A DNA stretch of 64,000 nucleotides, taken from UHGV virus genome UHGV-0134996; one strand, 5' to 3'. Source of the stretch: a virus. A model generated the notes under the pieces. That model was given only the letters and a program-made list of their open reading frames with translations. It ran no database searches and was not told the origin of the DNA. The translations under genes and the position numbers were made by a program. Of this stretch, positions 16,121 to 20,839 are shown piece after piece. Positions within the stretch are counted from its first letter, which is position 1. Each line of letters begins with the position of its first letter.

Positions 16121-16137
16121 AGATTTATTAGAGCAAT
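16121..16137 (-). promoter_or_regulatory. C1 operator-like 17-mer (16/17)
   Basis: Plus strand agatttattagagcaat; overlaps stop codon of HAD gene. Confidence 0.65.
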
Positions 16138-16643
16138 TACTGTTGATGGAGAAGCGCGTTTTCATACTCCCTGACCATTAACGTAAGTACGCCGTGACTC
16201 CTGAAAACACGCGCCACTTCAATCTTATCTTCCAGCGCGAACGCGATTTTACTTAGACCAATTTTCTTAAGGAGAGCAATCTTTGCTGGGCCGTCATTTC
16301 TGTCATCGGTGGCAGGACGCATAGATAGCAAAGGCTCAGCCCCGTTTGTTACGTGCTTACGCAACCAGGCTCGTGTTTTATCCCTGGCTATCTCACAGCG
16401 CCCGGTTACAAACCAGACCGTGTAAACGTTAAATAACTGGCGCACCATATCAATAACTGGAGTGATGGGAGCATCAGTGTCACAGGCAAGGTTAAACTCG
16501 TTCCAGTGCTCTGTTAATGCACCTTTGCCAGGTGGTGGAAGCAAATGCAGCCTGTCTTCCGTTGCCTCTGATATCGTCCCATCAATATCGACTATGACGA
16601 TATACGGACGTTCCTGGTGTGCGTGTTTATTGAAAATACTCAA
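16137..16643 (-). CDS. HAD-superfamily phosphatase-like protein
   Basis: 168 aa; motif I IVIVDIDGTIS. Confidence 0.6.
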   Translation of the reverse strand: MSIFNKHAHQERPYIVIVDIDGTISEATEDRLHLLPPPGKGALTEHWNEFNLACDTDAPITPVIDMVRQLFNVYTVWFVTGRCEIARDKTRAWLRKHVTNGAEPLLSMRPATDDRNDGPAKIALLKKIGLSKIAFALEDKIEVARVFRSHGVLTLMVREYENALLHQQ

Positions 16644-16716
16644 ATGCCCTCCTCATTGGACGAAAAAAATGCTGGTGGGACGCACTCCACCAGCATTAAA
16701 AGTGACACTGTAACTA

Positions 16717-17979
16717 TCAGCGAACGTAAATAGTGCCGCCGTTCTCTTTTTCCCATGCATCGCTACGTGCATAGCAAACATCGAGAAGTCTTCTTGCCGC
16801 TGTTTCCTCTAAACCCAATTCGACAACCAACTGCTCATGACGGCGGGTAACCACATCAAACAGGGTATGCAGCCCTTTATTGGCCAGTTCATCAATGAAT
16901 TCCGGTTCGAACGGTAGCTCTGCATCTGCCAACATAACCTCTTGCGCCCACTCGACACGGCGGACCAGTTCCGGGCGGCGGCTTTCCATCTCTTTACAGA
17001 TCATTTCATGGAAGAACTCTACCCAACCTTCCGGCTGGAACTCGCGGAAAATGGCCAACGGCTGGAAGTTTGGCATCAACCATTCGTTGATACGTATATC
17101 AATGGCATAGCCCATGTCGCAGCAGAACTGATAAGCAAAGTCCAGCTTAGAAACGATATAAGGACGCTCGTTATTGAACTCTTTAGGCGATGAGATCCCA
17201 TAAGCCAGGAGGCGCGGGAAGAATGAGATTTGCCCTAACGTCGGATGGAGTTTGCTTGCAGGGAAACGGCGCTCAGTAATGCCATACATTTCCTTCTTGA
17301 GCGTCGCAAATTTGGCGTTTTCATTAACCAGCTCGGTAACCTCTGCTTTTTTATTAGCAAATGCCACGCGCGCCTCGCTTGCATCTTTAATAGCCTTTTT
17401 GAGCTGTTGGTTAAGGTCGACAATCTGCTTACGCAGTTCCTGTCGCTCGCTTTTGGCTTTGTTATAGCGTTTCTCAAGGTTAAAAGGATCAAGTTTCATG
17501 ATCTCTTTATATTGAGATTTTAGAGTTGAAATCTGTGAGTTCCGCAGCACAACCATCGCGGTCATTTCATTGAGTTTTGTTTCCAGCTCAATGCTTATAC
17601 GTTCGGCATTATCAGCACGCTGGTTGGCGTCATGCGTCGCATCTTCGATCGCGTCCTGTTGCTGGCGTTTCAAATGTTCAATTTCCAGCTGAAGCTCTTC
17701 AATTTCTTTACCCTTCAGACCGAGATCCAACTGCATATTTTCAGCTGCATCTACCAGGGAGTTATGGCTATCAGCTTCTGCGTTATAAACATCAATAAGC
17801 TGTGCGTGAAGCATCTCCGCTGACTGAACCGCATTATCAAAAAAACGTGCTGTGAGGTCATCACAACTAACGCGGCGTTGCGCGGCCCGGATGTTCTGGA
17901 TAATGGCCGGGATACCGGCATTCAGGACATCAGGGATAGATACATTTTCGATTGATTGGTTTTGTGCTGAAGTGCTCAT
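16717..17979 (-). CDS. Coiled-coil protein with ~190-aa C-terminal globular domain, function unknown
   Basis: 420 aa; heptad-rich N-terminal 230 aa. Confidence 0.45.
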   Translation of the reverse strand: MSTSAQNQSIENVSIPDVLNAGIPAIIQNIRAAQRRVSCDDLTARFFDNAVQSAEMLHAQLIDVYNAEADSHNSLVDAAENMQLDLGLKGKEIEELQLEIEHLKRQQQDAIEDATHDANQRADNAERISIELETKLNEMTAMVVLRNSQISTLKSQYKEIMKLDPFNLEKRYNKAKSERQELRKQIVDLNQQLKKAIKDASEARVAFANKKAEVTELVNENAKFATLKKEMYGITERRFPASKLHPTLGQISFFPRLLAYGISSPKEFNNERPYIVSKLDFAYQFCCDMGYAIDIRINEWLMPNFQPLAIFREFQPEGWVEFFHEMICKEMESRRPELVRRVEWAQEVMLADAELPFEPEFIDELANKGLHTLFDVVTRRHEQLVVELGLEETAARRLLDVCYARSDAWEKENGGTIYVR

Positions 17980-17980
17980 T

Positions 17981-18279: not shown

Positions 18280-18280
18280 A

Positions 18281-18982
18281 TTATTCTGATTCTCGCTCAA
18301 AAAATGAGCTGATAAGGGGAAGCCAATCCTCTGACACTTCGCGAGGTCGCGGTTTGCCGTGGAAAAAGATTATTCGGCAGTCTTTTGGTAATGCCCCATT
18401 CCCCCTGGAGTAACGCGCGCTCGCATATTTTGAACCTGGTTCCACAACATCGGCCTTGTAACTTACAAACCATCCTGGATACAGATCCTGAAATGCTGGT
18501 GTATCATCGCCCATAACCTTTCGTAAGAACCCCTGATCACCCCAGCATTCAGTAGTAACACAACGAGCAATCCAACCTTCCGGATCTTGCCAGAATGCAC
18601 TCCAGATATGCGCTTTTACACTATTTGGTATCCACAGGGCACCGCTGCCACGATATTGTGGATGGTAAAAATCCCTAAGCATGGTGAAGCTGGTTGGTGG
18701 ATGCTCTAGGATTGGGCGTATATCACCGGCAATAACCGTGTCCAAATCCAGATAGAACAGATCATCGGTTATATCCGGTCGGAACAACTCTATTTTCGCC
18801 CACCAGCCACGGCACTTTTGCCACTGGTTGATCAATGGGACAACTTTGACGCCAGGTACATGTAAACGCTTCAGGTCTGTCAGGCAAATAATTTCATAGC
18901 CTTTTGGCAGTTGATTAACCAGCCACTGCACATCGGAAGCGTTATAGTCACCACCAGAGCGAAAAACTAAAGCAATCTTCAT
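18281..18982 (-). CDS. GT8-like (GT-A fold, retaining) glycosyltransferase
   Basis: 233 aa; DxD motif [12 protein letters not shown]; H..G.KP motif IFFHGKPRP as in LgtC/WaaJ-type GT8; no TM segment. Confidence 0.5.
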
Positions 18983-19671
18983 GCTGCACCATCACCTTTC
19001 ACTTTCATCAATGTCAGGTTTCCGCAAAATACGGCACCAGTGTCGATATACTGCTGATTCCAGAATGTCTTCGGGCTTTTCACCGGAGTGTGACCAAAGA
19101 TAAAACGATCTGCGCCCGAAATTTCGCCACCAATATCATCCATCGAATCACTGATACGCTCGCGCGCCCAGACAACGTTGAAAAGCGGCACCTCCTTACC
19201 GAATTGGTATTCATTATCCGGATAGTCGGCATGGGCTATAACGATAGTTTCTTGCCCGGTGTTCAACTCAATGATATAGGGCAGACGCTTTACCAGCTCC
19301 ACCAGCGCCCAGGCTAATATTTCCTGATCAGTGTCCAGCATGAAGAACCATTGTCCGCCATTCATTAGCCAGTTATTCACGTTGCCATCTGGACTTAACG
19401 CATCAATCATCAGCCGCTCATGGTTCCCCATCACTGCCCTGAACCAGGGCATCTGCAATAGTTCCAGACATTCGACATTTTCAGTACCGCGATCGATAAG
19501 GTCGCCGACCGATATCAGTAAATCCTGCGCCGGGTCAAAATCCACACGATGGAGTTCGGACATCAGTCTGGTGTAGCAACCATGCAGATCACCAACAACC
19601 CAGACATTCCTGTATTTGGTACCGTCGATACGGTGATAAATTGTGGGTGCCATCATGTATTCTTCAGCCAT
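18979..19671 (-). CDS. Ser/Thr metallophosphatase (lambda NinI / PP-lambda-like)
   Basis: 230 aa; GDLHGC, GDLIDRG, GNHE motifs. Confidence 0.8.
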
Positions 19672-20279
19672 TCTTTAAGAGTCATCTGCGGAATACCTCC
19701 CATTTTCCCGCATGAAACAACGTCAATCTGTTCACGCGCAGACTGGAATAACAAAGGCAGGTGACTTAGATTTTTTGGCGTGCCGCCGGAGTGAACGCGT
19801 GGTTCTTGTGTAGCGTCAACGCCCACCAGGGCGACATGTTTGAATCCGATATGGAAAGCCAGGTTCAGAGCGCCATATGCACTATTGCCGCTGGCAATTT
19901 CATTCTCATCTTCGCAAAGTCCGAAATGTGCGGACCAGCGCCACGCCCACCACTCGGGAGAATTCATATTTTTTGGCTCCATGCCACGTTCAGCCACACG
20001 ACGGAAGCACAGAACGCCGTCTCTGACTTCACGTTCTTTAACATCGGGTAGTGCCATGCAATAACAAACACCACGGCGACGGCGGCCACGACCAACGCGC
20101 CGCATATTGTCTGGCGATGGATCAAGTGTGAAAAAATAAGAAGCGCGGTTCAGCCAGTCGATGGCCCCATTGACCGCTATAATCGGCACTCCGCGCGGCG
20201 CAACAAAGTTTGCGGCGCTTGGGCCACTGCCGACGATAATAACGCGATCACTGCCTCTAAATTTATTCTTGGGAAACAT
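19653..20279 (-). CDS. GT42/MAF-like (sialyltransferase-fold) protein, paralogue B
   Basis: 208 aa; N-terminal [10 protein letters not shown] and SG...[20 protein letters not shown] resemble Cst-II IIAGNGPS / SG...LSGID; HS candidate catalytic pair. Confidence 0.45.
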
Positions 20280-20839
20280 TGAATTGCACTGCTCCTACTT
20301 GCATTCAAAATATGTAAATCTGCGTGTTTTTTGCGGGTATCCAGGAACTGCTGTTGCCATTTTGAAATAGACACCTGCGTTGGATTCCGTAGGGCTTGAG
20401 GGTGCGCGCCATGCCAATGAAGGCCGTTTTGCAGAGAACAGTCATAGCCGACTAATACAACTACTTCAGCCCCTGATTCAGCAGCCAGACTGATAGCCTG
20501 CGCGCCGCTATTTACCCCTTCCGCCGGTCCACAATATCGCCTGTACTCCAACGAAAATGATTTCGCCGCCGCCAGGTTGGCTGTCACTTTGCGGAATTTC
20601 CCTCCCGGTATGGTGGATCCGTATTGCTTCCACCATGACAAATCACCGGCGTATAAGGCATAAATGTCATCGAACATCTGCCAGGAATTGTTAACCGCGA
20701 TGATTGAACAGCCAGTTTTTTCTATAGCAGCACAGTCCTCACGAGTGAGTGACGGACCGCTACCGACACAAAAAACAGTCCTAGTCGCCCTGGGTGGTAT
20801 GTTCATTCTCAGCTGCAAATTCAGCCTCCAGGCGAGCAT
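20177..20839 (-). CDS. GT42/MAF-like (sialyltransferase-fold) protein, paralogue A
   Basis: 220 aa; TVFCVGSGPS...VVLVGYD; true start probably MNIPP near 20806; overlaps paralogue B. Confidence 0.45.
   Translation of the reverse strand: MLAWRLNLQLRMNIPPRATRTVFCVGSGPSLTREDCAAIEKTGCSIIAVNNSWQMFDDIYALYAGDLSWWKQYGSTIPGGKFRKVTANLAAAKSFSLEYRRYCGPAEGVNSGAQAISLAAESGAEVVVLVGYDCSLQNGLHWHGAHPQALRNPTQVSISKWQQQFLDTRKKHADLHILNASRSSAIQCFPRINLEAVIALLSSAVAQAPQTLLRRAECRL

Follow-up and report, generated by a model that had tools for sequence, protein, structure and literature searches.

Three minus-strand genes of a P1-like phage-plasmid, pmgO, pmgP, and pmgQ, probably encode, together with the separately located dbn gene, a soluble cytoplasmic module that builds a glycan during the lytic cycle (O-P-Q+Dbn). 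They lie in a viral stretch of 64,000 nucleotides (nt) (UHGV virus genome UHGV-0134996; hereafter, the window), within the operon pmgN-pmgO-pmgP-ppp-pmgQ. Comparison of gene order with that in other phages argues for O-P-Q(+Dbn) as a functional module, from which the two phosphatases Ppp and Pap are excluded. The explanation as a whole, which joins the module to a proposed mechanism and leans slightly toward a protein acceptor, is a tentative one whose likelihood falls just short of even. The pmgO-to-pmgQ enzymes are among the last multigene enzyme sets of P1 without an assigned function. The recurrence of O-P-Q, jumbo phages included, a natural fusion of O with P, and the homology of PmgP to Escherichia coli WaaZ lead to a concrete hypothesis; with the phage-host pair whose genetics are best developed, testing it would be inexpensive. 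A positive outcome would mean lytic-cycle editing of the lipopolysaccharide (LPS) core or protein glycosylation of a new kind, and a negative one dispensable cargo.

Correspondence to the P1 pmgN-pmgQ operon

By DNA identity and collinearity, the window is a P1-like phage-plasmid. Positions 16000 to 21000 match 19 P1-group phage records along the full length of the segment (97.7 to 98.6% identity; 97.9 to 98.6% DNA identity to P1, P7, and RCS47). The P1 record AF234172 aligns across 5001 bases at 97.9% identity, with annotated features that coincide with those of the window, and collinearity with P1-like phage-plasmids extends over the remainder of the window. Differences from P1 are only allelic, e.g., 1 nt in the operator Op83 and a PmgQ protein 97% identical to the P1 reference. 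As judged from these alignments, the segment holds the P1 operon pmgN-pmgO-pmgP-ppp-pmgQ (P7, hdmA-D/ppp), which has been annotated from the P1 genome record onward. An earlier reading of the window, made from the sequence alone, had not recognized the gene combination as a described one; the locus is in fact known and conserved, has stood for two decades in the P1 record, and has had its enzyme families named in public annotation. The P1 record lists pmgN, pmgO, pmgP, ppp, and pmgQ under "putative morphogenetic function," followed by pmgR, pmgS, and pap, and, separately, dbn as "possible glycosyltransferase," the P7 record uses the names hdmA-D, ppp, shtA/B, pap, and glt, and RefSeq and PHROGs label PmgQ "glycosyltransferase," PmgO "alpha-2,3-sialyltransferase," and Ppp "metallophosphoesterase." The sequence-only reading had also allowed that the cluster might prove to be an already characterized conserved P1 locus, which is correct as to annotation and conservation and incorrect as to functional characterization.

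The operon begins with the small gene pmgN (P7 hdmA; 20781 to 20978, minus strand; the shorter P1-annotated start corresponds to window position 20936) and continues on the same strand with pmgO (hdmB; 20177 to 20839), which encodes a soluble protein of 220 amino acids (aa) with a predicted MptE/Maf/sialyltransferase fold; pmgP (hdmC; 19653 to 20279), encoding a 208-aa putative distant PmgO paralogue and WaaZ homologue; ppp (18979 to 19671), encoding a lambda-type (NinI-like) Ser/Thr metallophosphatase; and pmgQ (hdmD; 18281 to 18982), encoding a 233-aa predicted GT8-type GT-A glycosyltransferase (GT). dbn (P7 glt; 26775 to 27773, minus strand), which encodes a GT4-like GT-B protein, lies directly downstream of the DnaB-like ban gene, 6 kb away from the cluster and set apart from it by a tail/baseplate operon; position 27749, the end given in the sequence-only reading, is an internal Met, at which the alignment with the homologue from phage EP_H11 begins. 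The list of open reading frames confirmed the minus-strand genes and translational overlaps already described for the cluster (4 nt for pmgQ/ppp, 19 nt for ppp/pmgP, and 103 nt for pmgP/pmgO), to which pmgO/pmgN adds one of 59 nt. The span from 18281 to 20839, credited with five genes, holds four, and the count of five includes pap. No transmembrane segment is predicted in any cluster protein (the maximum Kyte-Doolittle 19-residue mean is <1.6 in every one), and the PADLOC models of antiphage defense returned no match for any cluster enzyme.

Recurrence of the O-P-Q trio outside the P1 group

Unrelated phages encode homologues of PmgO, PmgP, and PmgQ in an identical order. The trio occupies the interval between the lysis genes and terS in Citrobacter phage phiNP and keeps its order in a 248-kb metagenomic phage and in Xanthomonas XacN1, Xoo-sp13, and Stenotrophomonas jumbo phages, and on a Logan phage contig, fused O-P precedes Q and a Nucleotid_trans GT-A gene. 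In the E. coli phages EP_H11 and IME392, the order is O-P-Dbn-Q, with a Dbn homologue (46 to 48% identity) inserted between P and Q, which bears out the link between the GT4-like gene and the cluster suggested in the sequence-only reading. All 27 PmgP-bearing GenBank phages also hold PmgQ, and in each of the 8 that are not P1-like, the PmgQ match lies within ∼1.3 kb. The slot between P and Q is variable, being filled by Ppp in P1, by Dbn in EP_H11, and by another GT domain elsewhere; pmgO is common to all related cassettes. Conservation of the cassette across P1-like phage-plasmids, a point left for checking, was evident as well: O, P, Ppp, and Q are kept in 57 of the 61 P1-like IMG/VR loci with full flanks, and a Pantoea P1-like plasmid retains the gene order at 58 to 73% aa identity. 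A scan of viral contigs with the PmgO alignment recovered only P1-like loci, at 96 to 100% identity.

These patterns bear on the view that there is no joint system and that the locus is a mosaic in which accessory genes that were acquired independently and have unrelated targets are neighbors by chance, e.g., a GT modifying a host protein as an antidefense or takeover factor. Such a mosaic would fit the independent movement of ppp, the distance of dbn, the occurrence of PmgQ-like genes alone in five phages, the pairing of PmgO-like genes elsewhere with entirely different partners, and the individual dispensability of the genes. It is nonetheless improbable, given a gene order kept across unrelated phage types and hosts, the invariable co-occurrence of P and Q, the insertion of Dbn into the cassette of two phages, the existence of an O-P fusion protein, and gene overlaps that suggest translational coupling.

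PmgO resembles Maf and PmgP resembles WaaZ

The homologue alignments of both PmgO and PmgP conserve a G-S-G-P-S segment and an NSG...G(Y/V)D block, and both proteins match the Rossmann-like fold common to Maf, CstI, and MptE. The best structural match of PmgO is Maf, a protein O-glycosyltransferase. Compared with the Maf flagellin glycosyltransferases and with GT42 (CstI/CstII), PmgO is a minimal 180-residue domain that lacks the flanking substrate-binding domains of Maf, has sequence similarity below significance (E value of 0.2), and possesses an invariant DCS...HWHGxH segment of its own. BLAST barely aligns PmgO with PmgP, and profile comparison with hhalign links them at a Prob of 96.9% (E value of 1.9e-10), by which measure the two are distant paralogues. 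Single-sequence PDB searches with PmgO, PmgP, PmgQ, Dbn, and Pap gave no significant match.

Profiles of PmgP and WaaZ align over 195 columns, nearly the full length of PmgP (hhalign Prob of 95%; E value of 3.7e-8), and share the segments GPS, VNG, LD, and G-x-D. WaaZ, encoded in the E. coli K-12 waa locus, is an MptE-like protein that carries PF01973, and its orthologues are named "3-deoxy-D-manno-oct-2-ulosonate III transferase" in the sources. This transferase of the third 3-deoxy-D-manno-oct-2-ulosonic acid (Kdo) residue of the K-12/R2 LPS inner core (KdoIII; PF27901), which we take to be CAZy family GT73, is like PmgP a soluble protein. PmgP differs from it in being phage borne, paired with a paralogue, and 75 residues shorter, without the central insert of WaaZ; the two are ∼24% identical. 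A metagenomic phage encodes a natural PmgO-PmgP fusion as a single 376-aa protein (P0051; L006 7001 to 8131), the precomputed Pfam list of which includes PF27901, "WaaZ_KDO_III," as a faint match. This fusion and the overlap of pmgO with pmgP (window positions 20177 to 20279, with a counterpart of 94 nt in phiNP) suggest that PmgO and PmgP may act as a heterodimer.

The Pfam family that both proteins match at subthreshold scores, PF01973, is named for an archaeal 6-hydroxymethylpterin diphosphokinase, which raises the alternative that PmgO and PmgP are pyrophosphokinases of the MptE/thiamine-pyrophosphokinase type, acting on a small molecule, rather than glycosyltransferases. We consider this very improbable, because it is Maf that PmgO matches over the larger number of residues (162 versus 125), PmgP resembles a Kdo transferase along its whole length, and the constant partners of the pair are themselves glycosyltransferases (GT8, GT4-like, and Nucleotid_trans).

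Characterized glycosyltransferases of the PmgO/PmgP fold (Maf, GT42, and WaaZ) use ulosonic acids activated with cytidine monophosphate (CMP). To our knowledge, E. coli K-12 makes only CMP-Kdo and is devoid of the CMP-activated forms of pseudaminic acid (CMP-Pse), legionaminic acid (CMP-Leg), and N-acetylneuraminic acid (CMP-Neu5Ac), and no CMP-ulosonic acid donor is annotated for P1. Because of this fold preference and the host repertoire, CMP-Kdo of the host is the most plausible donor for PmgO and PmgP, although we place its likelihood somewhat below one-half.

PmgQ is a GT8 glycosyltransferase and Dbn is weakly GT4-like

The predicted fold of PmgQ is GT-A, closest to GT8 members. Seven residues, D79, L80, D81, H208, G209, P211, and P213, located in the motifs D79-L-D81 and H208-G-K-P-R-P213, are invariant in 26 homologues. 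By fold and motifs, PmgQ is a glycosyltransferase of GT8, a retaining family, and its top matches are protein-modifying GT8s. Dbn scored 23.7 bits against the Pfam Glycos_transf_1 model (cutoff, 26.4) and gave two further, related weak matches to GT-B C-terminal domains; RefSeq labels the RCS47 protein "glycosyltransferase family 4 protein." Dbn is thus weakly GT4-like and is probably the fourth enzyme of the module. Overall, the Pfam, NCBIfam, PHROG, fold, and profile searches agreed with every enzyme family proposed in the sequence-only reading, albeit weakly for the GT4 assignment of Dbn. A lone PmgQ-like GT8 gene occurs between int and the tail fiber genes of the lambdoid Escherichia phage Chlobot (L094 5001 to 5720), a position typical of lysogenic-conversion genes.

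The operon has its own C1 operator

We scanned the window for the C1 operator consensus ATTGCTCTAATAAATTT, allowing up to 3 mismatches, and took shuffled sequences as the expectation. The scan yielded 11 matches versus 0.33 expected. The C1 operator-like sites noted before at 16121 and 18263 are genuine and equal, base for base, P1 Op88 (OpmgT; 16121 to 16137, minus strand), which lies downstream of pap and overlaps the pmgT promoters, and Op86a (18263 to 18279, minus strand), whose partner Op86b (18214 to 18230, plus strand) is likewise identical to its P1 counterpart. The supposition that they control the glycosyltransferase cluster failed, however: in the P1 record, Op88 belongs to the pmgT promoters and Op86a "controls expression of pmgR and pmgS," units that are both situated downstream of the glycosyltransferase genes. 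Instead, the cluster is served by Op83 (Oppp; 20980 to 20996, plus strand; TATGCACTAATTAATTT), which the P1 record places directly upstream of the pmgN-pmgQ operon and which in the window shows 4 mismatches to the consensus and differs by 1 nt from that of P1; the sequence-only reading did not list this site. A late promoter, LPpmgL, is annotated further upstream. The pmgN-pmgQ operon is thus predicted to be under C1 control via Op83, and its expression to belong, therefore, to lytic growth.

This arrangement sets the operon apart from the gtrABC O-antigen conversion cassettes, which are likewise phage-borne glycosylation genes in Enterobacteria. gtrABC cassettes encode membrane proteins expressed in the lysogen, whereas the P1 operon is C1 repressed and, as the sequence-only reading had correctly argued in rejecting a gtrABC-type cassette, encodes no transmembrane segment.

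A sister cassette is anchored by PmgO-like proteins

PmgO-like proteins also anchor a second cassette, in which they are accompanied by a 275-aa protein similar to D3 orf12 and by an S-adenosylmethionine-dependent methyltransferase. It was found in the Pseudomonas phages D3 (orf7, orf12, and orf13 at L005 5097 to 8289) and PAJU2, the Klebsiella jumbo phage Eowyn, a metagenomic siphophage, enterobacterial prophages, and most bacterial-genome matches (further loci, L091, L092, and L101 to L114). The 275-aa partner is weakly heptosyltransferase-like (WaaF E value of 0.21; Pfam GT9 E value of 0.069; hhalign Prob of 37.5%), and its GT9 likeness is a lead. PmgO-like genes are located inside head-tail gene clusters in D3, PAJU2, L009, L106, and L115, and the PAJU2 homologue is annotated as "structural protein." The PmgO family comprises 2850 clusters at an E value of ≤1e-10 and is rare in bacterial genomes, with 21 loci among 185,579 species in a scan of genome contigs.

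One PmgO-like domain is fused to Ig-like Big_1/Big_13 domains in a 556-aa protein (P0225; L118 2029 to 3699) encoded between holin and lysozyme genes and adjoining a GT2 gene. We did not use this fusion as evidence of virion association; it may be a chimera, since the contig is transposase rich and a nearby invasin-like gene has the same Big_1 repeats.

Proposed mechanism and acceptor of the glycan

In the mechanism that we propose, transcription would start once C1 repression at Op83 is lifted, probably with additional read-through from LPpmgL, and the function would therefore belong to the lytic cycle and not to lysogenic conversion. PmgO and PmgP would work as a pair that transfers Kdo from host CMP-Kdo, PmgO starting the glycan and PmgP, the WaaZ homologue, adding a second Kdo. 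PmgQ, with its GT8 DxD motif, would then add an alpha-hexose from a uridine diphosphate (UDP)-sugar, and Dbn, being GT4-like, a further sugar. We infer this order of action of the four enzymes.

A phage-made, i.e., virion, protein is a possible acceptor, though a doubtful one, toward which we lean slightly over the LPS inner core. This preference is based on Maf being the best match of PmgO and protein-modifying GT8s the top matches of PmgQ, on the PmgO-like genes in head-tail clusters together with the PAJU2 label, and on the combination of an initiating enzyme that stays constant with extenders that vary. Virion glycosylation is known for mycobacteriophage capsid and tail-tube proteins and for chlorovirus PBCV-1 (A64R), with GT families that differ from those of P1. 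In contrast to those systems, the P1 genes flank a tail/baseplate operon and depend on an early C1-controlled promoter, and glycosylated P1 proteins have not been reported. We set DNA aside as the acceptor: P1 is not known to carry hypermodified DNA or to possess a hydroxymethyl-pyrimidine pathway.

The other acceptor considered is the LPS inner core. Here, PmgO and PmgP, working on the cytoplasmic side of the inner membrane, would modify Kdo2-lipid A or core intermediates in the manner of WaaZ, with PmgQ and Dbn as GT8 and GT4 core enzymes, and the resulting altered or truncated core would lack the P1 receptor, so that there would be less superinfection or fewer progeny lost on cell debris. 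P1 adsorbs to the LPS core, where its receptor lies. PmgP is a full-length WaaZ homologue, and the WaaZ-like/GT8/GT4-like set mirrors the E. coli waa locus (waaZ, waaO/waaJ, and waaG/waaB), whose enzymes are soluble or peripheral, consistent with the lack of transmembrane segments in the cluster. The weakly GT9/heptosyltransferase-like partner in the sister cassette, the conversion-type position of the lone PmgQ-like gene in Chlobot, and the named bacterial hosts of PmgO-carrying phages, all Gram negative among the matches listed, point in the same direction. However, a C1-repressed operon is off in the lysogen, and the LPS synthesized during a single lytic cycle is unable to displace the receptor that the surface already bears; moreover, the host already owns Kdo and heptose transferases for its inner core, jumbo phages, XacN1 among them, carry the trio too, PmgO-like genes lie within head-tail clusters, and there is no report of an LPS or adsorption phenotype. 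We therefore judge LPS remodeling rather unlikely.

Several observations weigh against the proposed Kdo-transferring module and its protein acceptor. We know of no description of Kdo on a protein. Neither PmgO (23.6 bits) nor PmgP (21.1 bits) reaches the gathering threshold of PF01973 (34.6 bits), a cutoff under which WaaZ itself also remains (29.6 bits), and PmgO matches WaaZ marginally, in its C-terminal half only (Prob of 36 to 37%). The Op83 promoter implies early expression, which would be no less fitting for a target in the host than for a virion protein. Our literature search found no paper giving pmgO, pmgP, pmgQ, or dbn a function. Knockout or CRISPR interference (CRISPRi) of pmgO, pmgP, ppp, pmgQ, pap, or dbn had no effect on plating, and these genes as well as pmgS are nonessential by both approaches (PMC10695390). 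The main text of a P1 virion proteome study mentions neither PmgO, PmgP, or PmgQ nor glycosylation (PMC9024508).

More broadly, the PmgO-anchored cassettes (O-P-Q+Dbn and O with its GT9-like and methyltransferase partners) might represent a widespread, undescribed phage glycosylation system that draws on host CMP-Kdo to place a short LPS inner core-like glycan on a phage protein. We regard this generalization as unlikely; if true, it would provide the first Kdo attached to protein and the first virion glycosylation in phages of Gram-negative bacteria.

As a separate observation, CRISPRi directed at pmgN lowered P1 plating ∼100-fold, yet the pmgN knockout was nonessential and knockdown of pmgO to pmgQ was without effect (PMC10695390).

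Ppp, Pap, and neighboring genes

Ppp scored 59.3 bits against Pfam Metallophos (cutoff, 21.5), has the motifs GDLHG, GDLIDRG, and GNHE, and is 64% identical to the lambda phosphatase according to a note in the P1 record. It matched NCBIfam PRK11439 with 272 bits (E value of 3.3e-81), under the equivalog cutoff of 326, and is close to the models of E. coli PrpA/PrpB. pap (16137 to 16643, minus strand) encodes a HAD phosphatase of the polynucleotide-kinase 3′-phosphatase type, as indicated by 44.6 bits against Pfam HAD_PNKP (cutoff, 27.6), the nucleophile motif D19-I-D-G-T23, and a PHROG polynucleotide kinase match (6e-57). Their inclusion in the system by the sequence-only reading was not sustained, and we rejected both as module members because neither Ppp nor Pap occurs in any non-P1 copy of the O/P/Q module that we examined. 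Only the P1 lineage has ppp inserted between pmgP and pmgQ, and in the P1 relative D6, ppp is found among nin-like small genes without O/P/Q. Pap belongs to the next operon, the pmgR-pmgS-pap unit, and never adjoins O/P/Q outside the P1 lineage. Of its Op86-controlled genes between pmgQ and pap, pmgR (17981 to 18199, minus strand) is essential by knockout (PMC10695390), and pmgS (16717 to 17979, minus strand) encodes a coiled-coil protein.

The first 25 kb of the window matches 600 phage records, many of them Shiga toxin (Stx)-converting and Salmonella lambdoid phages, and in the neighboring pmgT-upf variable region (window positions ∼1 to 15000), lambdoid-type accessory genes (EaA/Ead-like) replace the P1 reference set. 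The C-terminal region of PmgM (21003 to 21581), a protein with no annotation beyond "putative morphogenetic," resembles a VRR-NUC nuclease (Pfam, 3e-4), and PmgM also matches a PHROG Holliday-junction resolvase family (1e-26). A typo in the P1 pmgM note, "norphogenetic protein," has been carried over into RefSeq, UniRef, and nr as a product name and is now the label of PmgO/PmgP-like proteins of many species.

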